Assembly (NCBI RefSeq): GCF_001548275.1
Contig: NZ_AP014945.1
Location: 720,001 to 752,000 of the forward strand
DNA from: Caldimicrobium thiodismutans
GTDB lineage: Bacteria; Desulfobacterota; Thermodesulfobacteria; Thermodesulfobacteriales; Thermodesulfobacteriaceae
Length of the DNA: 32,000 nt
Direction of reading: 5' to 3'
The translations under genes were made by a program, and so were the position numbers. A model generated the notes under the pieces. It was given only the letters and a program-made list of their open reading frames with translations, was not told the DNA's origin and did no database searches. The first letter of the stretch is position 1. Each line of letters opens with the position of its first letter. Of this stretch, positions 3,997 through 20,302 are shown piece by piece.

Positions 3997-4658
3997 GATC
4001 CTCTCTCTCTGTAATTATCCCTACCCTTAATGAAGAAATTTATCTCCCCCTCGCTTTAAAATCCCTTGCAAATATTGAGCTTGATGAAGTAATAGTAGTT
4101 GATGGAGGAAGCGAAGATAAAACCCCGTTCATAGCTAAATCCCTTGGAGCAAGGGTAATCCAGAGTGAAAAGGGAAGGGGAGTTCAACTCAAAAAAGGAG
4201 TAGAAGTTGCCAAGGGTGATCTCCTTTTCTTTATGCATGCTGATTGCAGAATTCTTGACAGAATTAATTTAAAAGATCTATACAAAAAAGGTATAAAAGC
4301 AGGGTTCCTTAACTTAGTCTATGATGGAAATACCTTTTCCCTTAAAGTTCTTGAAAAATTGATTAATCTTCGAGCAAGGCTTCTTCACTTACCCTATGGA
4401 GATCAGGGGCTTTTTGTAGAAAGGGCTCTCTATGAGAAAACAGGAGGCTTTAAAGAATATCCCTTTCTTGAAGACTTTGACCTTGTTTTACGCTTAAGAA
4501 AAATTTTCCCACCCCAACCCTTGCCTGGTAGGATCCTTGTCTCTTCAAGAAAATTCAAGGCTTCATCACCTTTCTTAATAAGCCTTAAAAATAATTACAT
4601 TCTCTTGCGCTTTTTATTTGGAGCATCTCCTGAAAATTTAAAAAAATTCTATAAATAG
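3993..4658 (+). CDS. Family-2 glycosyltransferase, TIGR04283-like ('transferase 2, rSAM/selenodomain-associated'; arsenosugar-associated)
   Basis: 221 aa. SVIIPTLNEE...VVDGGSEDKT and FMHADC GT-A/GT2 signatures. Family assignment is from memory of the family plus the genomic context next to an ArsS-type gene. Confidence 0.65.
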   Translation: MRSSLSVIIPTLNEEIYLPLALKSLANIELDEVIVVDGGSEDKTPFIAKSLGARVIQSEKGRGVQLKKGVEVAKGDLLFFMHADCRILDRINLKDLYKKGIKAGFLNLVYDGNTFSLKVLEKLINLRARLLHLPYGDQGLFVERALYEKTGGFKEYPFLEDFDLVLRLRKIFPPQPLPGRILVSSRKFKASSPFLISLKNNYILLRFLFGASPENLKKFYK

Positions 4659-4683
4659 CTGAGAATTTTTAAAAATTTTCTAT

Positions 4684-4713
4684 TTGACAAAATTAATTTC
4701 TATAGTTTATACT
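4684..4713 (+). promoter_or_regulatory. Sigma70-like promoter for the rhodanese/arsM-arsS operon
   Basis: TTGACA (4684-4689), an 18-nt spacer, then TATACT (4708-4713). It is followed by the perfect palindrome TGCCTTTAAAAGGCA (4720-4734) and an AGAGGAGG SD before the ATG at 4763. Confidence 0.4.
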
Positions 4714-4762
4714 TTTATGTGCCTTTAAAAGGCAAAATAAAAACTTAAGAGGAGGTGCAGAC

Positions 4763-5200
4763 ATGAGAGGATTTTTAGTCAAGGTCTGGGGAGTTATGCT
4801 TTTAGGGCTTATGGCAATGCTTTTTATGGCCAAAGCCTCCTTTGCAACAAATTTTCTTGAACCGCAGGAATTCAAAAAATGGCTTGAAACAGGTAAGAAG
4901 GTTATCATTGTTGACATCCAGCCCCATGAGGACTTTGTAAAGCACCACTTCAAAGGATCAATTGAAACCAATGCCTTCCCCGCCAATAATGATGACCTTA
5001 AAAAAAGGATTGATAAAGCCCTTCCTATAATTATTAACTCAAATGATCCTGTGGTAATTATTTGCCCCAGGGGAAGAAGTGGTGCTCAGAATACTTATGA
5101 TTATTTGAAATCTAAAGGTGTTCCTGAATCAAGACTTTTTATTCTCAAAGGTGGTATGGCTGGCTGGCCTTATCCAGAGCTTCTTGAGAAAGGAAAGTAA
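4763..5200 (+). CDS. Secreted single-domain rhodanese-like sulfurtransferase
   Basis: 145 aa. N-terminal signal peptide (LLGLMAMLFMAKASFA). Rhodanese fold with VIIVDIQPHEDF and active-site loop CPRGRSG. The stop overlaps the next start (TAATG). Confidence 0.75.
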   Translation: MRGFLVKVWGVMLLGLMAMLFMAKASFATNFLEPQEFKKWLETGKKVIIVDIQPHEDFVKHHFKGSIETNAFPANNDDLKKRIDKALPIIINSNDPVVIICPRGRSGAQNTYDYLKSKGVPESRLFILKGGMAGWPYPELLEKGK

Positions 5201-7266: not shown

Positions 7267-8884
7267 CTGCACTGAATGTAAGATCTGTATAAAAGCCTGC
7301 CCTTTTCTTGAAAAATATGGCCTTCCTAAGGAGATAATTCTTCAGAGAAAAGAAGAGGTTTTTTATTGCACAAACTGTTCAGCTTGTAGTTTCCTTTGTA
7401 AAGAAGGGTTAGATCCTGCAGAGGCTCTCTATTTTCTGAAAGTTTCCCTTCTTGAAGAAGGTTCAACTCTTGGAGAAAAACTTAAAAAAAGTGCCCTTTC
7501 CTTTACCAAGAAAATTCATTCCTTTCCCATTTCTCACTGGGAAAAGGCTGAAAGAATTTTCTGGCCAGGATGTAGTTTATGGGGAACTTATCCCCATTTA
7601 ATTAAAGAGTTATTAAAAATTTTAAATAAATTTTCTGATAAAAAAATAGTTTTGGTTCTTGATTGTTGTCTTGATCCTCTCTATCAAATCGGAGCTTTGG
7701 GGGAGACTAAAAAGGGCTGGCAGGAGCTAAATCAGAGATTTTTGGATTATGGCATTAATGAAGTAATCGTTGCCTGCACAAATTGTTATAAAATTTTTAA
7801 AAGATTTAGCAATAACCTAAGGGTTTTTCATATTCTTGAGATACTTCCTGAGGAAGAATTTCAAAATACCCTCAATAAGCCTTTTTTCCATCTTCCCTGT
7901 CCAGCCTTTAAGGAAATGGACTTAAAAGAAAAAATTGTAGAAAAATTTAAAGATAAAGTGGACAGGGTTTTACCTTATCCTTCTTGTTGTGGAGCAGGGG
8001 GTGGGGCCTATTTTAGTGAGGAAATTTCTGAAAGCTTCCTTGAAAAAACCCTTAAGCTTGCTGGTAAAAGACCCATTTTAACCTTTTGTTTTGGTTGCAA
8101 AAATCGTTTTCTTAAAAAGGGGGAAAGAGCCCTTCACCTGCTTGAAACCCTGAAAGGGATTAAGCCCCTTGAGAGCCATGTTTCTTCAGCTAAAAAATGG
8201 TTTAATCGCATAAAATTTTCTCTTCAGAGAAAAATTACAAGGCCAAAAAGCTTCTTTTTTCTTTTATTTTTTCTTTTGATGCTTATAAGCTTTTACTTTC
8301 AATGGAGAGGTTTTTTAAAGGCCGAAAATTTTGCTGATACTATTAAAGCCTTTTCTGGACATCCCCTTTCTATAATATTATATTTAATAATATATACAAT
8401 TGCTCCAAGCTTTTTTATTTCAAGTCTTGCTTTAACTTTACTTGCAGGTTTTTTATGGGGTCCTCTCTTTGGAGGGTTAATAGCCTTAACAGGGGCAACC
8501 CTCGGAGCAACCCTTTCTTTTCAACTGGCAAGATATTTTTTTAGAGAGTCCCTAAAAACCCGCTTAGGTTTAGAAAAATGGAAATACTTTGATGAAATTA
8601 CAAAAAAACACGGCTGGAAAGCGGTTGCCTTTGTAAGACTTTTTCCCCTTTTTCCCTTTCCCGTGGTTAACTATCTTTTTGGATTAACCTCAATTGATCT
8701 GAAAACCTATGTTATTTGCACCTTTTTCTTTATGGCTCCTGCAGGTTTTGCCTATACAGGCCTTGGCTTCTCCTTAAAAAGCATTCTCTTTGAAGGAAAG
8801 TTCTTTCCCTTATTTCTTGTTCTTGCCTTTCTTTTTACTCTCACTATTCTTTTAAGATATCTTTCCAAAAAATGGAAACTTTAG
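7217..8884 (+). CDS. Fusion protein: 2x[4Fe-4S]/CCG-domain (HdrD/GlpC-like) oxidoreductase plus C-terminal TVP38/TMEM64 (DedA-superfamily) membrane domain
   Basis: Start chosen at ATG 7217 (AGGAG 9 nt upstream); the ORF also opens at 7145. Motifs: CTECKICIKACP and CTNCSACSFLC ferredoxin-type, WPGCSL...LDCCLDP and LPCP...PSCCGAGGG CCG-type. About 5 TM helices follow, with LLAGFLWGPLFGGLIALTGATLGATLSFQLARYF (SNARE_assoc/TVP38 signature). Confidence 0.7.
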   Translation: MPAQPFMEQAVSDLLHNCTECKICIKACPFLEKYGLPKEIILQRKEEVFYCTNCSACSFLCKEGLDPAEALYFLKVSLLEEGSTLGEKLKKSALSFTKKIHSFPISHWEKAERIFWPGCSLWGTYPHLIKELLKILNKFSDKKIVLVLDCCLDPLYQIGALGETKKGWQELNQRFLDYGINEVIVACTNCYKIFKRFSNNLRVFHILEILPEEEFQNTLNKPFFHLPCPAFKEMDLKEKIVEKFKDKVDRVLPYPSCCGAGGGAYFSEEISESFLEKTLKLAGKRPILTFCFGCKNRFLKKGERALHLLETLKGIKPLESHVSSAKKWFNRIKFSLQRKITRPKSFFFLLFFLLMLISFYFQWRGFLKAENFADTIKAFSGHPLSIILYLIIYTIAPSFFISSLALTLLAGFLWGPLFGGLIALTGATLGATLSFQLARYFFRESLKTRLGLEKWKYFDEITKKHGWKAVAFVRLFPLFPFPVVNYLFGLTSIDLKTYVICTFFFMAPAGFAYTGLGFSLKSILFEGKFFPLFLVLAFLFTLTILLRYLSKKWKL

Positions 8885-9498
8885 AGGCCTTAGGCCTTTT
8901 CTTCAAAATCCCTGAAAAGGGAAAAGTAAAAACAAGGCTTGCAAAGGATGTGGGGGAAGAAAGAGCTCTTGAAATATATAAAGAATTACTCTGGAAAACT
9001 GTAAAAATTTCTGAGCATCTCTTTCTTCAAAGAAGAATAAAGCTTTTTGGTTTTTACGAGGGTGAAAGATTAGCCCGGATAAAAAAATTTTTTAACTTAA
9101 ATTTTAACTGGAATTTTCTTCCCCAGAAGGGTAAAGGTCTCGGGGAGAGACTGAAGAGGGCAGGGGAGTTGCTATTAAATTTTGGTTTTGAAAGAATAGT
9201 CTTTATAGGTGCTGATTGTCCTTTTCTATCCCTGGATTATCTCAAATCTGCCTTTGAGAGACTCAAGGATTATCCCGTTGTTTTTGGACCTTCCGAAGAT
9301 GGAGGATATGTCCTGTTGGGATTTAATTTTCTTTTTAAAAATAGACTTTTTCTTTTATTTGATTATTTACCTTTTGAAACAACGAAACTTTTAGATAAAA
9401 CATTAGAGAGACTGAAACCTGAAGATTTTTCTCTTCTTCCAACCCTTTTTGATATAGACACCTTTGAAGATTTTCAAAAATATTTAAAACTGACTTGA
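8872..9498 (+). CDS. DUF2064/TIGR04282-like nucleotidyl/glycosyl-transferase ('transferase 1, rSAM/selenodomain-associated')
   Basis: 208 aa. FFKIPEKGKVKTRLA, GKGLGERL, FIGADCPFL and GPSEDGGYVLLGF match the DUF2064 pattern. Overlaps the upstream gene by 13 nt. Confidence 0.7.
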   Translation: METLEALGLFFKIPEKGKVKTRLAKDVGEERALEIYKELLWKTVKISEHLFLQRRIKLFGFYEGERLARIKKFFNLNFNWNFLPQKGKGLGERLKRAGELLLNFGFERIVFIGADCPFLSLDYLKSAFERLKDYPVVFGPSEDGGYVLLGFNFLFKNRLFLLFDYLPFETTKLLDKTLERLKPEDFSLLPTLFDIDTFEDFQKYLKLT

Positions 9499-9554: not shown

Positions 9555-10154
9555 ATGTGCACAAAAGTTGGTGGCCTTGCTCCAGATTTTGAGGCTGGTG
9601 CCTATTTTCCCAATGGGGAGATCAAGAAGATTAAGCTTTCTGATTACAGGGGGAAATGGGTTGTCCTTCTCTTTTATCCTGCTGACTTTACCTTTGTTTG
9701 CCCTACAGAGCTTGTTGATGTAGCTGAGAAATATGAGGAACTTAAAAATCTCAATGTGGAGGTTATTGGAATTAGTATTGATACGGTTTTTGTTCACAAG
9801 GTCTGGCAAGAAGTTGAGCTTTCTAAGATGATTAGTGGAGGGGTTCCCTATCCCCTTGCCTCAGACCTTGGGGGAAAGATTGGTCAGCTCTATGGAGTCT
9901 ATGATGAAGCCCTTGGCCTTGATCTAAGAGGCACTTTTATTATAGATCCTGATGGGGTTCTTCAATCTGTAGAGATAAACAATGCCCCTGTAGGAAGAAA
10001 TGCAGATGAATTGGTAAGAAAGATTAAAGCCTTCCAGCATGTAAGAGCAACAGGTGGAAAGGAAGTATGCCCTGCAAAATGGGAACCAGGAAAAACCACT
10101 TTAAAGCCTGGAATTGAGCTTGCTGGAAAGGTTTACGAAGTCTATAAAAAATAA
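9555..10154 (+). CDS. Typical 2-Cys peroxiredoxin (AhpC/Prx1 family)
   Basis: 199 aa. APDFEA...YPADFTFVCPTE peroxidatic Cys motif, and resolving Cys in GKEVCPAKW. AAAGGAGGTGG SD. Confidence 0.9.
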   Translation: MCTKVGGLAPDFEAGAYFPNGEIKKIKLSDYRGKWVVLLFYPADFTFVCPTELVDVAEKYEELKNLNVEVIGISIDTVFVHKVWQEVELSKMISGGVPYPLASDLGGKIGQLYGVYDEALGLDLRGTFIIDPDGVLQSVEINNAPVGRNADELVRKIKAFQHVRATGGKEVCPAKWEPGKTTLKPGIELAGKVYEVYKK

Positions 10155-10724: not shown

Positions 10725-11594
10725 ATGAGACTTAAAATAACCTTTTGTCCTGTAGATAAAGATCAGATTATTCTTCCCATTCAATATAATGAAATTTTAC
10801 AGGGATTTATTTATAATTCTCTTGAAAGGGGGCTTGCAGAGAGAATTCACAATTTTGGATTTGAAGACCCTAAAACCAAGAGAAAATTCAAACTTTTTAC
10901 TTTTTCAAGGCTTTTAAGCTTACAAAAGCCCCTTATTAAAAATGGGAATATAGTATTTTCAGGAAGTTTCACTTTTTTTGTAGCCTCTCCTGTAAAGGAA
11001 TTTATTCAATCCCTTGCTCAGAGTATTTTAACAAGAGAAGTTTTAACCCTTGGGAAGGTGAGGGTGCTTTTGCAGTCTGTTGAGGTTATGAGTCCTCCCA
11101 GATATCAGGAAAAAATTTATGTGAGGACTCTTTCTCCTATTACTGTTTATAGCACTTTCAGGAAACCAGATGGAAAAAAGATAACTTATTATTATAGTCC
11201 TTTTGAAGAGGACTTTAGGAAGCAAATTTTAGAAAATTTAAACAAAAAACTTAGATCTCTTGGGAGGGAGGCGGATTTAGATGGCTCAATAAGACCCTAT
11301 AAAGTGAGTTCAAGGAATCAGAGAATTATTTTATATAAAAATATGGTTATTAAGGCTTGGGATGGGGTTTTTGAGTTATGTCTTCCGAGTTTTGAGCCTA
11401 CCTATGAGGAATTGAAACACCTATATCTTTATACAACTTCTTTGCAAAAAACTCGTTTTGAGCCTACCTATGAGGAATTGAAACGGAATGCCTCAATATC
11501 AATTTTTTCTCTTTTTAAAAGTTTTGAGCCTACCTATGAGGAATTGAAACTCGCATCCTCTAAAATATGTAAAACACACCCTAAAATGTTTTGA
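10725..11594 (+). CDS. cas6: CRISPR endoribonuclease Cas6, 3'-truncated (probable pseudogene). The Cas6-like part is 10725-11388; the rest of the ORF is read-through into CRISPR repeats and spacers.
   Basis: MRLKITFCPVDKDQIILPIQYNEILQGFIYN is a typical Cas6 N-terminus. VIKAWDGVFELCLP aligns to the strand just before the Gly-rich loop of Cas6 (compare P. furiosus ...[34 protein letters not shown]). The loop itself is absent, and CRISPR repeat 1 starts at 11389. Confidence 0.7.
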   Translation: MRLKITFCPVDKDQIILPIQYNEILQGFIYNSLERGLAERIHNFGFEDPKTKRKFKLFTFSRLLSLQKPLIKNGNIVFSGSFTFFVASPVKEFIQSLAQSILTREVLTLGKVRVLLQSVEVMSPPRYQEKIYVRTLSPITVYSTFRKPDGKKITYYYSPFEEDFRKQILENLNKKLRSLGREADLDGSIRPYKVSSRNQRIILYKNMVIKAWDGVFELCLPSFEPTYEELKHLYLYTTSLQKTRFEPTYEELKRNASISIFSLFKSFEPTYEELKLASSKICKTHPKMF

Positions 11595-12296
11595 GCCTAC
11601 CTATGAGGAATTGAAACCTCTATATTGAAAATTAAATTAATAGCAGTAAAAACAAGTTTTGAGCCTACCTATGAGGAATTGAAACATCTCTTTTAAGAGG
11701 TTCTGTCTTTCAGCTTCAAGCTGTTTTGAGCCTACCTATGAGGAATTGAAACGCTATAACTCCCGCAAGCCTTTGAGAAAATGGCTCAAGGTTTTGAGCC
11801 TACCTATGAGGAATTGAAACTCCTTTTTACCAGGGGCTCCTTCTCATCAAGCTCTACGTTTTGAGCCTACCTATGAGGAATTGAAACAGTAAACTATTTT
11901 ATCAGAAGATTTTTCTAGCTTTCGTTTTGAGCCTACCTATGAGGAATTGAAACTAATCCTCCTTTTAGATATACATCAGCGATAAATTTTTTTTTGAGCC
12001 TACCTATGAGGAATTGAAACCCAGATTAAGAGATGTTGGCATTGATATTTCCAAAATTTTTTTGAGCCTACCTATGAGGAATTGAAACAAGATATAATGA
12101 AGGTAAAGGATATTTATTCATTTTTGGAGGTTTTAAGCCTATCTATAAGGAGTTGAAACGAGATTTTCAAGATTTTCAAGATGTTCAGTGTTTTCAGGAT
12201 TTTAGGTTTTGAGCCCACCTATATGGGGTTAAATTATGATTTTTCTGGCTATGACTATTTATTTTTGTTTTTAGCCTACCTATAAGGGGTTGAAAT
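11389..12296 (+). CRISPR. CRISPR array 1: 14 copies of the 30-bp repeat GTTTTGAGCCTACCTATGAGGAATTGAAAC (11 intact or 1 mismatch, last 3 degenerate)
   Basis: Repeat starts: 11389, 11455, 11521, 11588, 11656, 11723, 11791, 11858, 11924, 11991 (G1T), 12059 (G1T), 12130 (4 mismatches), 12206 (degenerate), 12267 (degenerate). Spacers are 36,36,37,38,37,38,37,36,37,38,41,46,31 bp. The ATTGAAAC 3' end (the usual 8-nt crRNA handle) and the degenerate distal repeats both indicate + orientation. Confidence 0.92.
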
Positions 12297-12316
12297 CTTA
12301 CAGAAGATGTTATAAT
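12290..12316 (+). promoter_or_regulatory. Extended -10 promoter for the lipoprotein gene, whose -35 comes from the last degenerate CRISPR repeat
   Basis: TTGAAA (12290-12295, inside the repeat 3' end), 15 nt including TGT, then TATAAT (12311-12316), giving TGnTATAAT. The AAGGAGG SD precedes the ATG at 12365. Confidence 0.4.
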
Positions 12317-12364
12317 GATTAAAATTAAGTTTTTCATACACAAAAAACAAAAAGGAGGTGTCTT

Positions 12365-12973
12365 ATGAAAGAAGTGGTTAAGAAGTTTGTAAAGTTTATG
12401 AGGAAGATGGAAGCAAAAAGAGTTTTACTTGGTGTTTTAAGTTTAGCAGGAGCTGGATTTTATTTACAGGGATGTAGTTTAGTGCCTGATCCCACATCGT
12501 GGTTAGTTGATGATATTTATCATAGAAGGGACTGGAAACATGATGAAATCTCCACACTGGGAGCTTCTATTGTAAGAAAAGACAAAAATACCTATGAATT
12601 TACACTTGAATATACTTATTTTAGAAGAGATGATCAAAAAACAGCACCAGCAACTTTAGAAGTCTGGTATAAGGATAAGTCAATTTTTAAAAGAAATGCT
12701 TTTGTAGAAATGAAGTTATTTGATAGAGGTCCAATTCATAGAAAAATGCCAGTTCCCACTGAAACTACTTACCACATAAAACTTCCTGTTGTTCTTAAAG
12801 AAGGAGAATCTATAAAAATAGACATCTACACCAATAACACTATGGCAACTTCTATTTGTAAAATAGGTGAATTAAATGAAAAAACACCCTGTGATCATAA
12901 AACATCTCATAAATCCACATTTGGATTACCAGTTAACAAAGAGAAAACAACAAAAGAAAACAAAAACGAATAG
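12365..12973 (+). CDS. Hypothetical lipoprotein
   Basis: 202 aa. Signal peptide with lipobox LLGVLSLAGAGFYLQGC. No recognisable domain. Lies between array 1 and array 2. Confidence 0.6.
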   Translation: MKEVVKKFVKFMRKMEAKRVLLGVLSLAGAGFYLQGCSLVPDPTSWLVDDIYHRRDWKHDEISTLGASIVRKDKNTYEFTLEYTYFRRDDQKTAPATLEVWYKDKSIFKRNAFVEMKLFDRGPIHRKMPVPTETTYHIKLPVVLKEGESIKIDIYTNNTMATSICKIGELNEKTPCDHKTSHKSTFGLPVNKEKTTKENKNE

Positions 12974-13048
12974 AAAAAAAAGTAGCCTTAATGTAATCAA
13001 GCTATCTTAGAGTAATACAAAGAAATTTATATAGAAATAAACAAAAAA

Positions 13049-13210
13049 GTTTTGGGCCTACCTATGAGGAATTGAAACCTGAAGATGATTTTGAGCGTAA
13101 CAGGAAATTTCTTGTTTTGAGCCTACCTATGAGGAATTGAAACATTGATATCTTCCCATATTTCAGGAAAGTCTTCCTCGGTTTTAAGCCTATCTATAAA
13201 GAAAGGGTGG
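13049..13210 (+). CRISPR. CRISPR array 2 (remnant): 2 near-perfect repeats plus 1 truncated degenerate repeat
   Basis: Repeats at 13049 (A7G), 13114 (perfect) and 13181 (GTTTTAAGCCTATCTATAA..., identical over 19 nt to degenerate repeat 12 of array 1). Spacers are 35 and 37 bp. An AT-rich, leader-like stretch lies at 12974-13048. Confidence 0.75.
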
Positions 13211-13299
13211 TAAGAAGTAGTTAAAAATTTTCTTTAGTCTTAAAAGATTTGGACTTATCCATACACTTGACAAAAATAATTTTTTGTGATATTTAAAAA

Positions 13300-13330
13300 G
13301 TGTTGAGCATACCTATATAGTATTGAAAAC
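13300..13330 (+). repeat. Orphan degenerate CRISPR repeat
   Basis: GTGTTGAGCATACCTATATAGTATTGAAAAC matches about 24/30 of the consensus with a 1-nt insertion. It is preceded by TTGACA at 13266-13271 and an extended -10-like TGTGATATT. Confidence 0.5.
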
Positions 13331-13424
13331 TTAACTTATTTAGAGGCAGCCGAAGGTGATAAGAATGCTTGAAGTAGGATAGGGAGTAAGAGGTAAAGAG
13401 AACAAGAAAAAAGGAGGGGATAGT

Positions 13425-13898
13425 ATGCCAACATGCCCATCTTGCAAGATGGAAACAGCAGCTGGACGATGGTGTTCAGTTTGTCATAGGAACTTGCAAA
13501 ATCCTGAACTTGGAAGGCTTGTCTCGCCAGCGAAGCGCCTTGGAGCTTTCGTCTTGGACATCGTGCTGTTCTTCGTGTTGATGTTAATACTTAGATTGTT
13601 TTTCTCGCCCATTATTAAAAAAGAATCAGATATTGTTTTTTTATCTTTTTTGGTGCTGCTTATGGTCGAGCTGTTGTTTTTTTCGCGGGGGACCACACTC
13701 GGAAAGATGGTGTTAGGAATGAGGGTAGTCAAAACGGATGGGAGGCGCGCAGGCTTCTTTACCATGCTCTTCAGAGAATTGATCGGGAAGTCCATCAGCG
13801 GATTTTTCTTTTCCTTAGGGTTCTTGTGGATCTTACTTGATCGGGAGCGACAGGGCTGGCACGACAAGCTGGCGAGCACATATGTGGTTGAGCGCTGA
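13425..13898 (+). CDS. RDD-family membrane protein with an N-terminal zinc ribbon
   Basis: 157 aa. CPSCK...CSVCH ribbon, then RDD-domain features (RLGAFVLDIVLF..., GTTLGKMVLGMRVV, QGWHDKLASTYVV). GGAGGGG SD. G+C is markedly higher than in the flanks. Confidence 0.75.
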   Translation: MPTCPSCKMETAAGRWCSVCHRNLQNPELGRLVSPAKRLGAFVLDIVLFFVLMLILRLFFSPIIKKESDIVFLSFLVLLMVELLFFSRGTTLGKMVLGMRVVKTDGRRAGFFTMLFRELIGKSISGFFFSLGFLWILLDRERQGWHDKLASTYVVER

Positions 13899-13995
13899 GG
13901 TCGGCTGAGTAATTCAGGTGAATATAGCACTCCTGTGCCCGTTTTCTGAGGTCTATGAGCGAGAGGATGAGTGGTCTGTGCCTGCAGAGCAAAGG

Positions 13996-14013
13996 ATTTT
14001 GAACCTACCTATT
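13996..14013 (+). repeat. Orphan CRISPR repeat fragment (5' half)
   Basis: ATTTTGAACCTACCTAT matches 16 of the first 18 consensus positions; the 3' half is lost. Confidence 0.35.
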
Positions 14014-14039
14014 AAAAATTTATATAGTATTTTATAAAC

Positions 14040-14240
14040 ATGCCTTTTATTATCATCATTTTAAGCATATTTATAGGATATTTTATTGGTGCATTGGTTA
14101 TTTTCATAATTCCTCTCATTCTTTTAAGTTATCTATCCTATTTTACATTTAAGCAAAAACTGGCACTATATATTCAGGTAAGAAGAGAAAGAAGAAAACT
14201 TAAAAGACTTTTAAACGACAGACTAAGTTATATTCCTTAA
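14040..14240 (+). CDS. Small hypothetical membrane protein (2 TM helices, basic C-terminus)
   Basis: 66 aa. Very hydrophobic N-terminal 40 aa, then RRERRKLKRLL. No SD seen. Weak call. Confidence 0.35.
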   Translation: MPFIIIILSIFIGYFIGALVIFIIPLILLSYLSYFTFKQKLALYIQVRRERRKLKRLLNDRLSYIP

Positions 14241-14300
14241 AATTTTTGTAAAAAATTTTAAATTTCTTAAAGCATTATGGGTTATTTACTCAAATTTTTC

Positions 14301-14651
14301 TCAGCGAGCTTTTAAATAAGTGTCTCTAAGATGCTCAGGGAGTAGCTCTGGAGGAAAGATTCCCTCAGCAATTTTATCCAGATGCCACCACCAACGATCA
14401 AGCCCCTCATATTCCCTATCATAAGGTGGGTCCGCTTTATTCCTGATAGCGTTTATAATGGCTTTTTTGTCAAGCTCAATCACCTTGGGGTGGTTATCTA
14501 AACCCGCTTCATGGATTAGGTCTCTTATAGAAAGCCAGGTAGGTGCGGTGTGATAAAAAAAGGCTTGTCCATCCTCTTCATCTATGCCTAATTCCCAATC
14601 TTCTATCCACTCCTTATAGGGTCTTGACTTATAGTATTCTGATAAACCCAC
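14301..14651 (-). CDS. Hypothetical protein (116 aa, acidic, Trp-rich)
   Basis: GTG start preceded by GGAGAGGAAGAGAGG. No recognisable domain. Its start overlaps the end of an upstream start-less ORF. Confidence 0.5.
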   Translation of the reverse strand: MGLSEYYKSRPYKEWIEDWELGIDEEDGQAFFYHTAPTWLSIRDLIHEAGLDNHPKVIELDKKAIINAIRNKADPPYDREYEGLDRWWWHLDKIAEGIFPPELLPEHLRDTYLKAR

Positions 14652-14910
14652 CTCTCTTCCTCTCCTTTACCCATTGTATGAAAGGCTTGTTCAGTCTGTA
14701 AAAACTTTTAATCAAAAGCGCATCATCCTTACTCACCACTATTTTATCACCTTTCTTGAAAATATAGTAATCCCCCTTTTCTGTTCTTTCAACATAGATT
14801 TCATCCGGGCTCTGAACGATCTTTTTTGCTTCTCTGTAGTATTCTTTCGGTGAGCTAAATATGGAATTTTGACTTATAGTATTCTGATATGTAGTAGAGG
14901 AGTTTCGAGC
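14632..14910 (-). pseudogene. Start-less ORF remnant (93 codons) whose 5' end is cut off by an orphan CRISPR repeat
   Basis: Hand translation: ...SSPKEYYREAKKIVQSPDEIYVERTEKGDYYIFKKGDKIVVSKDDALLIKSFYRLNKPFIQWVKERKRGGFIRIL*. There is no ATG, only a late GTG/TTG. The upstream in-frame stop lies inside the repeat at 14911-14913. Confidence 0.3.
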
Positions 14911-14993
14911 TTACCTATGAGGAATTGAAACTTCTAGCAGTAACAGTCAGAATAATCAACATTTTAAACATACCTATGAAGAGGATTTGAAAG
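14902..14993 (+). CRISPR. Orphan mini-array: near-perfect repeat, 29-bp spacer, degenerate repeat
   Basis: 14902-14931 is GTTTCGAGCTTACCTATGAGGAATTGAAAC (28/30). The spacer is TTCTAGCAGTAACAGTCAGAATAATCAAC. 14961-14993 is ATTTTAAACATACCTATGAAGAGGATTTGAAAG (degenerate), and it overlaps the last codons and stop of the minus-strand GGDEF/EAL gene. Confidence 0.5.
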
Positions 14994-17469
14994 AGGTAAG
15001 GGGTAATTGTGGAGAAGGTTTCCCAAGGTGAAAACCCTGACCAAACTCAACTCCAAAGTCCCTTAATTTACTAGCAAGCTCCTCACTCTCTACATATTCA
15101 GCAATGACTTTTATATTCAATCCTTTACAAAGGGTAACTATACTTTCTATAATAGCAAGATCAACAAGAGCTTCTCTGCTAAGTCCTATTACAAAATCTC
15201 CTTCTATCTTAACAAAATCAATTATAAAATGCTTAATATATTGAAAAGAGGAAAAGCCTGCTCCAAAATCATCGATACAGAATTTAAACCCATAATCCTG
15301 AAGATTTCTTATAAATTTTTCTAAAAGGGTTAAATTTTTAACTGTTTCTCTTTCAGTTAATTCAAAAATAATTTTTTCCGAGGGGAAAGAATAATTTTTC
15401 ACAAGTTCTTTAATTTTCTTTAAAAATTCAGGAACAATTAAAACTTTAGGGCTTAAATTAAAGAAAAAATATCCCTGATAATTGGTTTCCTTGGCTAAAG
15501 ATAAAGCCTTTTCCATGTTGATAAAATCCATCTCCATTATAAAACCCATACTCTCTGCAATACCAATAAATCTTTGGGCAGGAATAACTTCATCTTCTAT
15601 TTCTATTCTCATTAATACCTCACACCCAAAAAGCTCTCCGGTTTTAAGGTCATATATAGGTTGAAAATATGGAAGTATCCTTTTATTTTCAACAGCTTCT
15701 TTTACAAGAAGGATGGTATCAGTTATTTCTTTTTGATAACTTAAAATCTCCTCAGCAGTAGGATAAACTATTTTATTTTTTCCTTCTTTTTTAGCTTTAT
15801 ACATTAAAGTATCTGCAAGGGTAAAAAGATCTTTGCTGGTCTCCCCATGATCAGGAAAAATGGCTATTCCTATTGATGTAGTTAGGAAAACCGGTTTACC
15901 ATCTGGTGCCTCTATTTTGAAATTGGATAGGTTTTCTTTAATTCTTTCAGCAACTGATACTCCCTGTGTAAGGTCACACAAGGGAAGTATCAAAGTGAAT
16001 TCATCTCCTCCATATCTTGCTAAGATATCGCCCTTTCTTTTTATCTCCTCCAAGAATTTAGCAAACTCTCTTAAAAATTCATCCCCAAAGGAGTGACCAT
16101 AGGTATCGTTAATTAACTTAAAGTTATCTAAATCTACTATTAAAAGGGCAAATTTATAATTGTATCTTTTGGCTCTTTCAACCTCATATTCTAACAGTTC
16201 CCAGAAAGTTCTCTGATTATAAAGGTGAGTTAATGGATCACGAGTAGCATAAAATTCAAGTTCTTTAGTATATTTATTTATAGCTCTTATAGAGCCAATC
16301 ACATTTAATAGGGAAATCAAAACAGTTTCAATAGCTATCTCTTGAGTGGAAGTTAATTTTTCATGAGAAAGCCCAATCCCAACAATCCCCCCAATCTTTG
16401 GAGATTCAAGGATTAAACTTTTAGTTTTCAAATAAAAATTCTTGAAAGCCTCTTCAGAATAACTCTCATCTGCTAAAACCACATTGTGAATGAAATTAAA
16501 ATTATTTATTTTGAATTTTTCTAAAAATATTTTTCTAATCATACCTTCCATATCTTCTTTGAAAGATCGTGTAGGATTTTTCAACCAGAAAATCTCAGTA
16601 TCAAAAAGATCTTCCTCTACATAAAAAAGAGCAAAAATTGAAACAATTTCAACAATCTTATTCACCTCAATTAGAAGATTATTAACATAATATTTCCAAT
16701 CTCTTATAAATTCAGAAGTTATAATAAATTTTTCAAGAAGACTTAGTTCAAATTTAAAAAGCTCTCGATCAATAGCAAGCTCTTTCACTTTTCTTAAGAA
16801 GTCATCCGTAATCTCTAAAAGCCCATCAAATTCATAAATTCCTGTTTTTGAACTTGTTAAAAGATCTTCATTCTCAATTAATTCATCAAACTTTGAAGAT
16901 CTTCTTATCCTCTCCTTTAATTCTTCAATGGGTTTTACAAACTTTTTACCTTGAAGTTTCCCTATAAAATAAACTCCAAGCAGAGGAAATAGGGAAAAGA
17001 AAAGAAGGAAAAGTAAAAGAGTCTGATGTATTTCTTTTAAATCCTCTTTAAGAGAATTCTCAAGCACAAGAACCCCAAAAAGATCGCCTTCTGAAATTCC
17101 CCTATGGCAGTTTAAACACATCTTTGTGGCAGTAATATTATATTTTATATAAAGAGTATCTCCTTTCTTAGTAATTATATATTCCTTATATAATGGGATT
17201 TCTTTTACTTCTGAAGGTTTTTCAAGGGTTACCTTTAGTTTGTCAGTTTGAAAAATTCTGAGAAAATTGTCTAATTCTTCACGGGTAAATCCTTTGAGCA
17301 TTCCCTGATATAGAGAAGAAAAAATGGCCTTGGCTTCAATTTGAGATCGGAAAATTAGAGATTTTTCAAAATAGTTTTTTATAAATAAAAAAAGAAAACC
17401 ATAAAGAATTAGAGATAGAAGAAAGTACCCTAAAAGGGTATGAATTAAAAGTTTTTGATGAAGTCTCAT
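14974..17469 (-). CDS. Membrane-bound signalling protein: periplasmic heme-c (CXXCH) sensor domain, TM helix, uncharacterised middle region, GGDEF diguanylate cyclase and EAL phosphodiesterase
   Basis: 831 aa. N-terminal TM helix; MCLNCHRGISEGDLFGVLVLE (a Tll0287/DUF3365-like heme-c motif); a second TM helix; RYGGDEF; then EVLMR...DDFGAGFSS...KIEGDF EAL-domain motifs. Confidence 0.85.
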   Translation of the reverse strand: MRLHQKLLIHTLLGYFLLSLILYGFLFLFIKNYFEKSLIFRSQIEAKAIFSSLYQGMLKGFTREELDNFLRIFQTDKLKVTLEKPSEVKEIPLYKEYIITKKGDTLYIKYNITATKMCLNCHRGISEGDLFGVLVLENSLKEDLKEIHQTLLLFLLFFSLFPLLGVYFIGKLQGKKFVKPIEELKERIRRSSKFDELIENEDLLTSSKTGIYEFDGLLEITDDFLRKVKELAIDRELFKFELSLLEKFIITSEFIRDWKYYVNNLLIEVNKIVEIVSIFALFYVEEDLFDTEIFWLKNPTRSFKEDMEGMIRKIFLEKFKINNFNFIHNVVLADESYSEEAFKNFYLKTKSLILESPKIGGIVGIGLSHEKLTSTQEIAIETVLISLLNVIGSIRAINKYTKELEFYATRDPLTHLYNQRTFWELLEYEVERAKRYNYKFALLIVDLDNFKLINDTYGHSFGDEFLREFAKFLEEIKRKGDILARYGGDEFTLILPLCDLTQGVSVAERIKENLSNFKIEAPDGKPVFLTTSIGIAIFPDHGETSKDLFTLADTLMYKAKKEGKNKIVYPTAEEILSYQKEITDTILLVKEAVENKRILPYFQPIYDLKTGELFGCEVLMRIEIEDEVIPAQRFIGIAESMGFIMEMDFINMEKALSLAKETNYQGYFFFNLSPKVLIVPEFLKKIKELVKNYSFPSEKIIFELTERETVKNLTLLEKFIRNLQDYGFKFCIDDFGAGFSSFQYIKHFIIDFVKIEGDFVIGLSREALVDLAIIESIVTLCKGLNIKVIAEYVESEELASKLRDFGVEFGQGFHLGKPSPQLPLTSFKSSS

Positions 17470-17743: not shown

Positions 17744-18976
17744 TTAAGCACCATATTTTGTAAGACGGCCTGCATGAGCAAGTAACAATTGCATAAGCTT
17801 GAAACTCGGAAAGATCCCAAGTTCCCCCTTTAAACACTCCCTCTCTGTTAATCTCAGGGATAAACCACCAAGGCAATAAGGAGAGTTTATAAGCACTGGC
17901 ACGGGATGCCAGGAGTGAGACTTCATTATACAAGGTGTTGAGTGATCTCCTGTAATTGCCAAAACATTAAAATTTAATGAGACTATTTCTAAAAAATGCC
18001 TATCAAATTCTTCAATTACCGAAATTTTTCCTTCATAATTTCCATCTTCCCCATAGGAATCAGTTTTTTTAATGTGAACAAAGAAAAAATCGTAATCCTG
18101 CCAGGCCTCTTTAAGAGTTTTTACCTCTGCATCAATGGATTCACCCTCAAAAGTAATTAAATCCATTCCTACAAGCCTTGCAAGCCCCTTATACATTGGA
18201 TAAACTGCAATACAGGCGCTTTTCAGACCGAACTTTTCTGGAAAGGGTTCCAGGGCAGGCTTTACTGAAAATCCACGCAACAAAACATAATTTGCCTTTG
18301 GTTCATTTTTCAGCAATTTGGCAGCCTCTTCAATAAATTTTCTGGCAATTAGTGCAACCTTTTCGGCCTCTGGATTTTCACCAGTTGGAAGTAAGGGAGG
18401 CTTTTCTGTGCTCTGGGGATCTGTATCATTTATTTTTTCAAAAAAATGAGAAAGCTTATAGGGAAATCTTAGAATAAGGGAAAAACGATGTTCTTTACCT
18501 GAACATAAAATGACCTCGGCTTCATCAATCTTTTTAATATTTTCAGATAAATATTTAATTAATCTTTTGTTTTCTTCTGTGGGTATTCTACCAGCCCGTC
18601 TGTCAATTACAATTGGAAGACCATTTTCATATTTGACTGTAGCAAAGTTGCCCCGGATAGCCACATCTGTATCTTTAACTTCAAGCCCTACTCCAACTGC
18701 CTCAAGGATGCCCCTTCCAATTTCATATTTTAATGGCTCGTATCCAAAAATACCTAAATGCCCAGGGCCAGAACCTGGAGTTATTCCATAATCAACAGGG
18801 ATGTGAAGACCGGTTGCTGACCTGGATGCAAGGTTGTCTAAGTTAGGGGTTTTGGCAAGCTCTAAAGGGGTTTTGCTATCTTTTACAGGTAAGTCCCCTA
18901 CCCCATCAAGAACAATTAAAATAATTTTAGATTGGGCATCGTTCTTTATCAATTTTTTCAGACCTTCCATCCTCAT
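17744..18976 (-). CDS. apgM: Cofactor-independent phosphoglycerate mutase, archaeal type (ApgM)
   Basis: 410 aa. ILIVLDGVGD, TPNLD, GSGPGHLGIFGY and ITGDHSTPC metalloenzyme-superfamily motifs characteristic of ApgM. Confidence 0.85.
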   Translation of the reverse strand: MRMEGLKKLIKNDAQSKIILIVLDGVGDLPVKDSKTPLELAKTPNLDNLASRSATGLHIPVDYGITPGSGPGHLGIFGYEPLKYEIGRGILEAVGVGLEVKDTDVAIRGNFATVKYENGLPIVIDRRAGRIPTEENKRLIKYLSENIKKIDEAEVILCSGKEHRFSLILRFPYKLSHFFEKINDTDPQSTEKPPLLPTGENPEAEKVALIARKFIEEAAKLLKNEPKANYVLLRGFSVKPALEPFPEKFGLKSACIAVYPMYKGLARLVGMDLITFEGESIDAEVKTLKEAWQDYDFFFVHIKKTDSYGEDGNYEGKISVIEEFDRHFLEIVSLNFNVLAITGDHSTPCIMKSHSWHPVPVLINSPYCLGGLSLRLTERECLKGELGIFPSFKLMQLLLAHAGRLTKYGA

Positions 18977-19136
18977 CCCCCATAGTCATCTCTTCTTTCA
19001 TTTGTTCTATTTCTTTTTGATATTCCTTTACAGGCCTTTCTATGCCGCAGGTAAGACACCTTACCCGGGCATTTGCTCATTTACCACAAATAACAGCCTT
19101 TCCACCACAATAATGGCAAGTTAAAAAGATATCCAA
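18927..19136 (-). CDS. Candidate small selenoprotein (69 aa, zinc-ribbon-like, CxxU) with an in-frame TGA at 19077-19079. Alternatively a 19-codon ORF or a pseudogene.
   Basis: The TTG start lies 5 nt after a GAGGGGG SD. Translation: MDIFLTCHYCGGKAVICGK-U-ANARVRCLTCGIERPVKEYQKEIEQMKEEMTMGDEDGRSEKIDKERCPI. A SECIS-like hairpin lies at 19042-19072. See findings. Confidence 0.35.
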
Positions 19137-19138
19137 AT

Positions 19139-20302
19139 TTACCCCCTCTGACTCAAAAGGGTATGAATAAGATTATCTGGGTTTGCTTCTATTTCTTCTG
19201 TGATAAAAACTCTTATTCCCTGGCTGGTTAGCTCATCAGCAACAGAAGTATTTGAAGCATGAAGAAGGATATGGGTTGCTACCTGCTCCTGTAAAAAGTC
19301 AACAAGAGCTTGATTTTCAGGCTTTTTGGCTACATCTTTTACTAAAAGTTTATTATTTTCAATATCATAAAGGGCAAAAAGGTCAAACTTCTCTGGATTA
19401 GCCTCAAATTTCTGAGGAGTTGCAATTGGAACAGCGATTCGCATGTATTTTTCTTCTAAAACCTCTTTATGCATCTCTTCAGTTGCTGAAATTATGTTTC
19501 TGATAACCTCTTCAAAGGCTTGAGCTGTTAAACTCTCTGGATAAGCCCCGACAATAGGCTTTCCTCTATCACCTGTATCAACCACTCTTGGATCAACGGG
19601 GATCTTTCCCAAAAATCTAATACCCATTTCCTCGGCAAGTTTTTGACCCCCTCCCCTTTTAAAAAGATCAAGAGGTTTTCCACAATGGGGACAGATAAAA
19701 CCGCTCATATTTTCAATAAGCCCCAGAATACGCATCTTAACTTTCTGACAAAACTTAATAGATTTTTTAACATCTATCAGGGATACTTCTTGAGGGGTGG
19801 TTACAATAAGGGCATAGGCATCTGGGATAGTTTTGGCCACAGTAAGAGGTTCATCCCCTGTGCCGGGAGGTGCATCAATTACAAGATAATCAAGTTCACC
19901 CCAATCGATATCACCAATAAATTGCCGGATAGCCGAAATCTTTATAGGGCCTCTCCAAATAATAGCTGAATCCTCAGCAGGAAGAAGAGGTTCAATGGAG
20001 AGAAATTTAAGATTTGGTGAATACTTTATAGCCCCAAGTCTTCCATCAGGTCTTCTTGTAAGTTTCAAGTCCCTTGCACCAAGCATTTTGGGAATACTTG
20101 GCCCGTGTAAATCCACATCCAGAAGACCAACCATAAAATCCTGAAGGGAAAGACCAACTGCTATATTTACTGCAACGGTGCTTTTACCAACCCCCCCTTT
20201 GCCTGACATAACCATAATCTTGTGTTTTATTTTAGAAAGCTGTTCTTTTAGTTTTTTATCTTGCTGATCCAAAATGGCACTTTTTTCCTTCTTAACTGAC
20301 AT
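19139..20302 (-). CDS. apbC: Mrp/NBP35 (ApbC) Fe-S cluster carrier ATPase fused to a C-terminal NifX/NifB-like (Nitro_FeMo-Co) domain
   Basis: 387 aa. Deviant Walker A SGKGGVGKST, DAPPGTGDE, and ICPHCG cluster-ligand motif. The C-terminal ~100 aa (RIAVPIATP...LFALYDIENNK...) resemble the dinitrogenase FeMo-cofactor-binding fold. Confidence 0.85.
   Translation of the reverse strand: MSVKKEKSAILDQQDKKLKEQLSKIKHKIMVMSGKGGVGKSTVAVNIAVGLSLQDFMVGLLDVDLHGPSIPKMLGARDLKLTRRPDGRLGAIKYSPNLKFLSIEPLLPAEDSAIIWRGPIKISAIRQFIGDIDWGELDYLVIDAPPGTGDEPLTVAKTIPDAYALIVTTPQEVSLIDVKKSIKFCQKVKMRILGLIENMSGFICPHCGKPLDLFKRGGGQKLAEEMGIRFLGKIPVDPRVVDTGDRGKPIVGAYPESLTAQAFEEVIRNIISATEEMHKEVLEEKYMRIAVPIATPQKFEANPEKFDLFALYDIENNKLLVKDVAKKPENQALVDFLQEQVATHILLHASNTSVADELTSQGIRVFITEEIEANPDNLIHTLLSQRG

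Follow-up and report, generated by a model that had tools for sequence, protein, structure and literature searches.

A member of the OS_HP3/NF041197 selenoprotein family predicted between mrp and apgM in Caldimicrobium thiodismutans

The window, by which we mean the whole 32,000-nt stretch of Caldimicrobium thiodismutans contig NZ_AP014945.1 that was analyzed, contains on its minus strand a short reading frame located between mrp and apgM and interrupted by an in-frame TGA. Direct translation of this frame gives L/M-DIFLTCHYCGGKAVICGK, TGA (19079-19077), then ANARVRCLTCGIERPVKEYQKEIEQMKEEMTMGDEDGRSEKIDKERCPI, TAA. The genes and protein features of the locus, in window coordinates, are as follows:

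19139-20302, minus strand: mrp, upstream and co-directional (PF10609), encoding an MrpORP-like Fe-S cluster carrier with NBP35/ParA and C-terminal domains
19142-19148, minus strand: Shine-Dalgarno sequence GAGGGGG, within the last mrp codons and 5 nt before the TTG, recognized from the sequence
18927-19136, minus strand: predicted selenoprotein gene, TTG 19136-19134 to TAA 18929-18927, 69 codons plus stop, with Sec as codon 20
19101-19118, minus strand: first knuckle CHYCGG (Cys7, Cys10), C..C invariant across the family
19077-19079, minus strand: UGA codon 20, predicted selenocysteine, modeled at the turn that links beta-strands 2 and 3
19044-19058, minus strand: second knuckle CLTCG (Cys27, Cys30), from the sequence and the family alignment
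18987-19034, minus strand: C-terminal helix P.KEY..EIE..KE, with Y39 and E44 nearly invariant
18936-18938, minus strand: C-terminal Cys67 (ERCPI), from a comparison of tail Cys residues across 127 members
17744-18970, minus strand: apgM, downstream (PF01676 and PF10143), cofactor-independent phosphoglycerate mutase

Re-reading and translating the sequence recovered the reading frame, the TGA, both knuckles, the Shine-Dalgarno sequence and the hairpin where an earlier note on this DNA had placed them. The mrp product scored 418.7 bits against NF041136 (cutoff 450), and the gene ends with TAA at 19141-19139; because the TTG start lies only 2 nt past this stop, translation of the predicted selenoprotein is likely coupled to that of mrp. 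At the other end, gene calling and homology both place the apgM start at 18970 (apgM was called as 408 aa in strain variants L001 and L002), giving a 44-nt overlap with the selenoprotein tail. The mrp-apgM gap, described previously as intergenic space with a hidden coding frame, does hold such a frame but is thus not wholly intergenic, since the tail of the frame extends into apgM.

The window peptide matched NCBIfam model NF041197, "dual CXXC motif small (seleno)protein," over positions 1-44 of 53 (E 3.4e-9, 36.7 bits), and the model was matched by all 11 aligned members (best E 7.8e-12). Annotation pipelines miss the gene because its score falls below the curated NCBI equivalog cutoff of 40 bits, which makes it a putative equivalog, although the cutoff serves annotation and does not mark a biological property; the Caldimicrobium branch straddles this threshold, with sister genes scoring 34.5-40.8 bits. 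Other members scored higher, including those of T. hydrogeniphilum (41.8 bits) and D. widdelii (45.3), D. ovata "OS_HP3 2" (51.6) and the published OS_HP3 prototype (69.3). The OS_HP3 family was first described in 2007 (Zhang & Gladyshev, PMC1976440), NF041197 is listed as OS_HP3 in the table of a 2026 review (PMC13188914), and deep-Sep (PMC12013277) assigns "hypothetical protein DW" to this model as well; experimental verification of any member was not found in the cited literature. The call of a selenoprotein is strongly supported, but the earlier description of it as novel does not hold: the gene belongs to an already catalogued family and is not a new kind of protein.

Like other members of OS_HP3/NF041197 (~55-75 aa, Thermodesulfobacteriota), the predicted protein has a central Sec whose codon is followed at once by a SECIS-type hairpin, and combines a C-terminal helix and the frequently seen C-terminal Cys with an identically spaced block of C-x2-C, 9 residues, U/C, 6 residues and C-x2-C-G. 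In the window this block reads C7-x2-C10, U20, C27-x2-C30; it contains no indels among 127 members, and the same gene architecture was present at > 120 homologous loci. The published D. ovata "OS_HP3 2" sequence (CIFCGGRAELHGRUATAKVACRDCG) shows this motif too, including G-R-U-x-x-A-K-V-x-C-x-x-C-G. Relative to the OS_HP3 prototype, the window gene represents a divergent Thermodesulfobacteriaceae/Caldimicrobium branch (36.7 vs. 69.3 bits), distinguished by a VRCLTCG second knuckle, a class A SECIS with a GUGY tetraloop, a lineage-specific Cys at U-3, its fixed position between mrp and apgM, and an extra Cys at the extreme C-terminus, not ~20 residues past the knuckle.

Related loci were gathered with a hand-made degenerate DNA pattern spanning the invariant codons, which matched the window once where 0 matches were expected. 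Among species-representative Thermodesulfobacteriota genomes, 116 of 118 homologous genes had TGA at the same codon and the other 2 had TGT, encoding Cys. Over all family loci, the Sec column held TGA in 124 of 126 and TGT in 2, with TGG in none; three additional Cys forms of the family had TGC or TGT, and TGA was retained in three strain variants. Homologues thus carried either TGA or a Cys codon at this position, as anticipated for a selenoprotein, and the apical part of the hairpin was conserved in relatives. Well over 100 genomes at species level carried the gene, whereas an exhaustive HMMER search of 5.8 billion predicted proteins, with homologue P0001 as query, recovered nine full-length family members, six of which are there solely through a TGA=Trp code wrongly applied in gene calling. 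The long matches P0002, P0004 and P0011 were rejected as members, being compositionally biased and without the motif.

The frame past the TGA, noted earlier as open in the window, was open in every homologue, across the second CxxCG and on to the end of the helix, and its amino acids were conserved. Compared with 14 relatives, the 30 post-TGA codons showed 5-10 synonymous and 7-14 non-synonymous differences, and the pre-TGA codons were similar; on these counts, the downstream frame is under purifying selection. Because synonymous changes were equally common before and after the TGA, translation appears to continue past it. Elsewhere in the window TGA is an ordinary stop, ending 7 of the 30 large ORFs, including the previously cited example at 3994-3996. 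A systematic scan of the window for other TGA read-through ORFs yielded none that was credible. The PrxU-type peroxiredoxin encoded in the window, considered as a second selenoprotein, was rejected because it is an ordinary Cys form that has a Shine-Dalgarno sequence and ATG of its own; it matches its model only from position 36.

Directly past the UGA, the minus-strand transcript folds into a hairpin with the following parts:

19042-19072, minus strand: full local hairpin, 13 pairs plus one bulged C, from the minimum-free-energy fold
19049-19066, minus strand: conserved core of the predicted SECIS, a 7-bp stem GGGUAAG/CUUACCU with G-U as outermost pair
19059-19056, minus strand: GUGU tetraloop at the apex of the core

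The core stem starts 10 nt and the loop 17 nt after the UGA. Folding of the 71-nt context gave this hairpin (19072-19042) as the minimum-free-energy structure (-22.2 kcal/mol, z = -2.65), and 1 of 200 shuffles of that context was equally stable. By itself the hairpin has an energy of -19.1 kcal/mol, and of the 1,224 TGAs that the two strands of the window contain, only this one precedes a SECIS-type hairpin at or below that energy. Published bSECIS criteria comprise an apical loop of 3-9 nt and an upper stem of 4-16 bp (PMC13188914, Fig. 2 legend), a G among the first two bases of the loop, with G or U usually next, a UGA-loop distance of 16-37 nt and an MFE of <= -7.5 kcal/mol (PMC13188914). 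The window hairpin agrees with all four (loop of 4 nt, GUGU; 13 bp; 17 nt; -19.1 kcal/mol), bearing out the SECIS-type geometry claimed earlier; 74% of family sites passed these criteria, vs. 9.8% of control TGAs. The resemblance to the E. coli fdhF-type SECIS extends to a location in the coding sequence directly 3' of the UGA, a small, G-U-led apical loop 17 nt away and an energy far below -7.5 kcal/mol, but not to sequence, in which the two share no similarity. The fdhF SECIS has a bulged U, whereas the window hairpin ends in a tetraloop without one. A further difference from fdhF-type elements is that a single protein family, NF041197, uses two structurally different hairpin classes.

Owing to these two classes, RNAalifold found no single consensus structure over all members, and classes A and B were analyzed separately. 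In class A, the apical stem was paired in 100% of 20 distinct relatives and the loop was GUGU or GUGC in all 20; at pair 18-27, 13 relatives had A-U, 7 had G-C and none a mismatch. The compensatory A-U to G-C change falls at two codon third positions, and its score was reached by 0 of 500 shuffles. The class B hairpin showed three covarying pairs (0 of 2000 in the shuffle test). Among 20 close relatives, between 3 and 11 lacked pairing at the lower six pairs of the window hairpin, which, from this comparison, are specific to the lineage. The 13-pair hairpin of the earlier note is therefore the minimum-free-energy fold at its site, but its conserved portion is limited to the apical 7 bp and tetraloop. 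Strain variants L001 and L002 carry C-to-T changes in the 3' arm, with one G-C pair becoming G-U and the bulged base altered. The stem was retained in three of five Cys forms and lost in L086, the nearest Cys-form relative. As the codons of the second knuckle also form the loop and 3' arm of the SECIS stem, this stretch would be under dual constraint.

Some of the hairpin's conservation is imposed by the conserved residues VRCLTCG that it encodes, and the GUA/CUU vs. GUG/CUC covariation could partly reflect GC content.

Support for a zinc-ribbon-like fold built from both CxxCG knuckles, as proposed earlier, comes from an AF2 model of a Cys homologue, predicted with moderate confidence (pLDDT 76), which is ribbon-like, with four strands and a helix (residues 38-57) and with the first knuckle adjoining beta-strand 1. 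The best PDB matches of the model in Foldseek were zinc ribbons (best E 0.07, not statistically significant), and a PDB sequence-profile search returned nothing significant. Two CxxC(G) knuckles on beta-hairpins, ~30 residues apart, are also found in ZifS (Thermus, 8yoz) and in the C-terminal ribbons of TFIIS and RPC10, and ZifS likewise has a helix after the knuckles. Matches to the Lar family were weak (PF14354, E 0.005, 17.5 bits vs. a cutoff of 28.6; TIGR03655, E 0.003, 18.0 vs. 39.6), and the Lar resemblance is confined to the level of the zinc-ribbon fold. Unlike the predicted window product, none of ZifS, TFIIS, RPC10 and Lar is a selenoprotein.

The window does read C-G-K-U, the CxxU motif on which the earlier note had placed weight, and this formal motif and the small size are shared with SelW-like/thioredoxin-like CxxU selenoproteins; the modeled zinc ribbon plus helix, however, has no thioredoxin fold. 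Only 6 of the 127 distinct members carry a Cys at U-3, the usual motif being G-[RK]-U, and since it is absent from the other 121, CxxU is not what defines or conserves the family. At least one tail Cys was present in 110 of 127 members (87%), most often 20-21 residues past the CxxCG, compared with 36 in the window. Cys67 may be the counterpart of this fifth Cys of the family and a candidate resolving or ligand Cys. For the C-terminal extension of two Desulfofervidaceae members, no Pfam match was found.

The gene order mrp-selenoprotein-apgM was kept in seven Caldimicrobium-type genomes, all seven with the TGA conserved. Gene neighborhoods outside Caldimicrobium were completely different, and no universal neighbor was found across family loci; a TPR protein occurred at 18 of them and a convergent DsrP/O/J-like trio at ~15. 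Neither selA, selB, selD nor tRNA-Sec was found in the 32-kb window, in the related loci retrieved or in ~30 kb of flanks taken from sister contigs, and Caldimicrobium is not listed in the paper supplements. We infer that this genome decodes Sec, with indirect support from the TGA conserved in the seven Caldimicrobium-type genomes and from the literature on Thermodesulfobacteria: complete selA/B/C/D sets have been reported in Thermodesulfobacteria isolates, and Thermodesulfobacteriota are among the most selenoprotein-rich bacteria (PMC13188914).

Taken with the hairpin, the TGA in 116 of 118 genes, Cys in the remainder and the reading on past the TGA provide strong support, at the level of comparative sequence analysis, for a selenoprotein, against which several other explanations can be weighed. 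The TGA could be a plain stop, leaving a 19-residue peptide or nothing and making the hairpin a regulatory or stabilizing RNA between mrp and apgM; TGA does end other window genes normally, gene callers leave the region unannotated, and the Sec machinery was not seen in the window and flanks. This is very unlikely given that in > 120 species 30 to 50 codons past the TGA stay open and conserved at the amino-acid level, that rare homologues have a Cys codon at the TGA position and that the gene is conserved in unrelated neighborhoods outside Caldimicrobium; moreover, neither a terminator-like site nor an Rfam family match was found for the hairpin. A subtler alternative, which we consider unlikely, is that the same hairpin recodes the UGA but that Cys is inserted by a SelC*-type tRNA(Cys), mimicking tRNA(Sec) and delivered by SelB. 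Thermodesulfobacteria and delta-proteobacteria have been reported to carry selC* tRNA(Cys) genes, a form of which with a UCA anticodon inserted Cys at an opal codon when assayed in E. coli; a later paper addresses SelB-mediated Cys recoding of UGA, and rare homologues tolerate Cys at the position. If Cys were intended, however, TGT or TGC would be simpler, yet TGA is kept in 98% of species; the combination of an opal-reading selC* with a dedicated CysRS* was described in that selC* work only for a Desulfobacterales subgroup, and the window shows no sign of selC*.

Two explanations that invoke a different amino acid are both extremely improbable. A Lar-like zinc-ribbon gene might have become a pseudogene by mutation of TGG (Trp) to TGA, in keeping with the W shown at this position by the closest database protein, P0001, and with the weak PF14354 and TIGR03655 matches, Lar often being aromatic there. 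Those matches lie far below their cutoffs, though, and the HMM favors C over W by 6 bits (36.7 bits with C, 30.6 with W). The reading is ruled out by the DNA of P0001 and the five other homologues shown with W, which in all six cases has TGA, not TGG, at the Sec column; the W arises because gene callers applied the TGA=Trp code. The same six short contigs are what could suggest a genome-wide code in which TGA is a sense codon (code 4 or 25), with an ordinary protein bearing Trp or Gly at position 20. The lineage is Thermodesulfobacteriaceae, and the code-4 calls are artefacts of short AT-rich contigs; stop-codon usage in the window, where the seven ORFs ending at TGA are large, full-length and domain-complete (among them ThrRS and the gene at 3370-3996), rules this code out.

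We therefore favor the interpretation of the gene as encoding a 69-residue OS_HP3/NF041197 selenoprotein with SECIS-directed Sec at UGA 19079-19077, to which we assign a probability of roughly 0.88. Translation would start at TTG 19136, probably coupled to the end of mrp, and the hairpin just past the UGA, with its core 7-bp stem and GUGU loop, would act as a bacterial SECIS, presumably recruiting SelB with Sec-tRNA(Sec) so that Sec is inserted and reading continues to TAA 18927. The product would be a four-Cys zinc-ribbon (rubredoxin-knuckle) mini-domain, with a putative metal in the ribbon, followed by an alpha-helix, and the Sec is predicted by the model to be exposed in a turn between the knuckles. 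The likeliest role for so small a protein would be in redox chemistry or in metal/chalcogen handling, with the Sec paired with a downstream Cys.

A more specific proposal, which we regard as doubtful, is that this is a nearly Sec-obligate family (~98% Sec) built on a four-Cys zinc-ribbon/rubredoxin scaffold, in which an exposed Sec at a hairpin tip of the protein and the conserved downstream Cys form a selenylsulfide redox or metal/chalcogen-transfer site and, in Caldimicrobium, translation is coupled to that of the Fe-S carrier MrpORP. If true, it would represent a zinc-ribbon/rubredoxin-type fold so far uncharacterized for any selenoprotein, and the MrpORP coupling would suggest that in these sulfur-disproportionating thermophiles the protein serves the trafficking of metal clusters or sulfur. 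On the favored interpretation itself, a Caldimicrobium-type thermophile gains one more selenoprotein and the mrp-apgM "gap" becomes coding, while the nine predicted proteins set against a gene in > 100 species-level genomes expose an annotation blind spot. The family may also serve as a compact model for why Sec is kept, given that Cys almost never replaces it, for how a SECIS can be made from the codons of a protein's own, putatively metal-binding knuckle, and for how two different hairpin solutions can serve one protein.

The minus-strand open reading frame at 18927-19136, between mrp and apgM, is a real selenoprotein gene with a SECIS element. It adds an unannotated member to a catalogued family and is not a new kind of protein. 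Its landmarks, read from the sequence, lie where the earlier note had placed the SD, TTG, TGA and TAA:

19148-19142, minus strand, GAGGGGG (SD)
19141-19139, minus strand, TAA stop of the upstream mrp
19136-19134, minus strand, TTG start
19079-19077, minus strand, in-frame TGA (Sec codon)
18929-18927, minus strand, terminal TAA

Translation gives L(M)DIFLTCHYCGGKAVICGK before the TGA and ANARVRCLTCGIERPVKEYQKEIEQMKEEMTMGDEDGRSEKIDKERCPI after it. The supposed intergenic gap does lie between mrp and apgM, but the 3′ end of the frame shares its last 44 nt with the start of apgM (18970, according to homology and to the 408 aa called for this gene in sister contigs); the gene was mistaken for a gap because ordinary gene calling truncates it. 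Of the 30 large ORFs in the window, 7 end at TGA; the organism therefore has the standard code and TGA is an ordinary stop elsewhere, as had been noted. The mrp gene (19139-20302, minus strand) scored 418.7 bits against the MrpORP model NF041136 (cutoff 450); MrpORP is the Fe-S carrier tied to the "orange protein" complex in sulfate reducers. The order mrp, small gene, apgM was kept in seven Caldimicrobium-type genomes only, with mrp 77-81% identical, which assigns the window to that lineage, and the selenoprotein start codon lay 2 nt past the mrp stop in all Caldimicrobium-type genomes examined. Two contigs of GCA_017880035.1 (L001 and L002) encode an Mrp protein identical to that of the window, and carry a HepT/nucleotidyltransferase toxin-antitoxin pair downstream of apgM (12815-13655) where the window has a GGDEF-EAL protein (14974-17469), a strain-level variation at this junction; the presence of three near-identical contigs in one assembly points to co-assembled strains.

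Among 5.8 billion predicted proteins, the sole close relative of the window peptide (P0001) showed W at the critical position. Its DNA has TGA there, which rules out a TGG-to-TGA nonsense mutation, the reading that this W had prompted, and shows that the gene caller applied a TGA=Trp code. An exhaustive HMMER search recovered nine further small homologues with W (five) or C (four) in this column, all five W codons being TGA in the DNA, and searching the protein database with a profile gave the same nine proteins and no others. We then scanned one genome per species with a degenerate DNA pattern that spans the invariant codons and allows TGH at the critical one; the pattern matched once in the window (0 expected) and at least 120 loci overall. 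Two TGT matches, in Janthinobacterium and a Lachnospiraceae, were unrelated chance matches and were left out of the 118 true family members listed, in which the codon was TGA in 116 and TGT (Cys) in 2. The frame stayed open through the second CxxCG knuckle and a conserved Y..[DE]IE..K helix in every member. Nearly all carriers among the loci listed were Thermodesulfobacteriota, including the cultured Thermodesulfobacterium hveragerdense, Thermodesulfobacterium hydrogeniphilum, Thermosulfurimonas dismutans, Desulfacinum hydrothermale, Desulfosarcina variabilis, Desulfosarcina widdelii and strain NaphS2. The homologue comparison that the earlier note had proposed thus came out as TGA or Cys with a conserved downstream frame. 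P0001, P0005-P0008 and P0010 are encoded on short AT-rich metagenome contigs (L003-L008) whose public gene calls used the TGA=Trp code; such calls leave selenoproteins full-length in protein databases, with W at the Sec position, and are recognizable by contig DNA that does not translate to the database protein; a database-wide search for W/TGA discrepancies could act as a selenoprotein discovery screen.

Codon comparisons also point to translation beyond the UGA. Between the window and 14 relatives, the 30 post-TGA codons showed 5-10 synonymous and 7-14 non-synonymous differences, a balance similar to that in the 15 pre-TGA codons, and the TGA was kept in three strain variants from one metagenome assembly. 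No selA, selB, selD or tRNA-Sec was found in the window or the flanks of the sister contigs. Sec decoding in this organism has strong indirect support, because the TGA is conserved across the genus, the phylum Thermodesulfobacteriota is rich in selenoproteins (PMC13188914), and complete Sec machinery has been published for Thermodesulfobacteria isolates. The same paper that reported this machinery described a SelC*-type tRNA(Cys) in the phylum, leaving a small probability that such UGA codons are read as Cys instead of Sec.

Minimum-free-energy folding yields the hairpin at 19072-19042 (−22.2 kcal/mol within 71 nt of context; z = −2.65), a stability matched by only 1 of 200 shuffles; no terminator-like site or Rfam match was found in this region. 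Published criteria for bacterial SECIS elements are a loop of 3-9 nt with G within its first two positions, a stem of 4-16 bp, 16-37 nt from UGA to loop, and an MFE ≤ −7.5 kcal/mol (PMC13188914). The window element lies within all of these limits (GUGU loop, 13 bp, 17 nt, −19.1 kcal/mol), and among 1,224 TGA triplets in the window only the selenoprotein TGA has such a hairpin at that energy. Across the family, 74% of sites passed; of the control TGAs taken at these loci, 9.8% did. Two hairpin classes occur, both in the same reading-frame register. Class A (the window and the Thermodesulfobacteriaceae/Caldimicrobium clade, 20 distinct sequences) has a 7-bp stem with a GUGY tetraloop, completely paired in 20/20. 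One pair, formed by codon third positions on both sides (Val GUA/GUG, Leu CUU/CUC), is A-U in 13, G-C in 7 and mismatched in none. In 500 shuffles, neither the paired fraction nor the covariation score of the real alignment was reached, and when the partner was shifted by 1-3 columns pairing fell from 85% to 24-49%. Of the 13-pair hairpin described earlier, the fold itself and the apical 7-bp stem stood, but the lower six pairs were not conserved in class A. Class B (100 sequences) has three covarying pairs (0/2000 shuffles each). The changes AGG to AGA, CUU to CUC and ACC to UCC abolish the class A stem in L086, the nearest Cys-form relative, and a second Cys form scored below the SECIS threshold; three class-B-like Cys forms retained a stem, which is partly forced by their Cys and Gly codons.

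For family assignment, the read-through peptide was queried with Cys replacing the stop. It matched positions 1-44 of the 53 in NCBIfam NF041197, the model for OS_HP3, a "dual CXXC motif small (seleno)protein" (E = 3.4e-9, 36.7 bits; 30.6 bits with Trp instead of Cys); Pfam gave just weak zinc-ribbon matches (e.g., Lar, E = 0.005). The curated cutoff is 40 bits.

Scores of family members against NF041197
OS_HP3 prototype, 69.3 bits
D. ovata OS_HP3 2, 51.6 bits
D. widdelii (L079), 45.3 bits
T. hydrogeniphilum (L067), 41.8 bits
Caldimicrobium (L083 and L040), 40.8 bits
T. hveragerdense (L018), 38.8 bits
Window, 36.7 bits
Caldimicrobium (L022), 36.3 bits
Caldimicrobium (L027), 34.5 bits

By these scores the window gene falls just below the annotation threshold, as a divergent member of a known family. 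OS_HP3 was introduced as a new selenoprotein family from two genes in Olavius symbionts with a predicted SECIS (Zhang and Gladyshev, 2007; PMC1976440), and in Desulfosarcina widdelii PP31 deep-Sep counted it among the known selenoproteins (PMC12013277). The D. ovata "OS_HP3 2" of the deep-Sep supplement, KCIFCGGRAELHGRUATAKVACRDCGMEINPEQYRDQIENWMETVC, shares the motif of the window protein (PMC12013277). The earlier proposal of a selenoprotein gene with a SECIS is thus upheld by the TGA/Cys column, the open conserved frame and the hairpin, but the NF041197 match to a published family removes its claim of novelty.

The CxxU (C-G-K-U) redox motif suggested previously is not a family feature: only 6 of 127 distinct members have Cys at U-3, where the rest have residues such as K, T, E, Q, V or H, and the conserved motif at Sec is G-[RK]-U. 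An extra Cys follows the second knuckle in 110/127 members, most often 20-21 residues downstream; its window counterpart may be C67 in ERCPI, 36 residues downstream. An AlphaFold model of the all-Cys homologue P0012 (ICGRC vs. ICGKU in the window; alignment of 9 sequences; mean pLDDT 76, core 84-89) has four short strands with both knuckles, then a helix; the Sec-equivalent residue sits in the turn that joins strand 2 to strand 3. Foldseek gave no significant PDB match; the top matches were all zinc ribbons, Thermus ZifS (8yoz) first with a probability of 0.96, then TFIIS, RPC10, primase and topoisomerase I ribbons. A PDB sequence-profile search likewise returned nothing significant. Gene context across the family loci gave no general clue to function: outside Caldimicrobium-type genomes neighbors vary, the commonest being a divergent TPR protein (18 loci) and then a convergent DsrP/O/J-like trio (about 15 class B loci, e.g., L102, L113, L123), by eye a putative DsrP (NrfD-type membrane protein), DsrO (Tat-signal ferredoxin) and DsrJ (small multihaem cytochrome). 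In two Candidatus Desulfofervidaceae loci (L023 and L110) the ORF runs ∼100 residues past the helix into a conserved domain that carries a CLPCE motif and lacks a significant Pfam match (best E = 0.008); as a possible fusion partner, this domain might offer a clue to function. The exposed Sec may have a redox or metal-handling role, with the downstream Cys as its putative partner.

Elsewhere in the window, an arsenosugar-biosynthesis-type cluster (3370-9498, plus strand) encodes a methyltransferase and a rhodanese, a glycosyltransferase that matches TIGR04283 at 207.8 bits (cutoff 182), a transferase that matches TIGR04282 at 157.6 bits (cutoff 134), a 688-aa fusion protein in which an ArsM-like methyltransferase is joined to the radical SAM "(seleno)protein" ArsS (TIGR04167, 302 bits; cutoff 300; Cys form), and a ferredoxin/CCG/DedA-VTT fusion protein; both fusions look unusual. 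A peroxiredoxin (9555-10154, plus strand) scored 306.7 bits against the PrxU model NF040737 (cutoff 270) from model position 36. PrxU is a selenoprotein in some species; the window gene, which has an SD and ATG of its own and no upstream TGA extension, encodes the Cys form (FTFVCPTE) and was rejected as a selenoprotein gene. The region 10725-14931 holds a Cas6 gene (10725-11594) adjoining a fragmented CRISPR array (Rfam CRISPR-DR2, minus strand) with ∼14 repeats at 11389-12296, a pair at 13049-13143 and a lone repeat at 14902-14931; between the blocks lie an ORF without Pfam match (12365-12973) and an RDD-family membrane protein (13425-13898). No cas gene other than Cas6 was found within the window.

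The SECIS stem of the family is built from codons of the protein's own second metal-binding knuckle, at 19044-19066 in the window and at class B loci. The class A stem consists of the V-R-C-L-T codons (GUA AGG UGU CUU ACC), and that of class B is formed by the two UGC Cys codons of the knuckle, which pair with each other's neighborhood (..CUGCA...UGCGG.., e.g., L036 and L013). One protein family thus has two hairpin solutions under a dual coding constraint.
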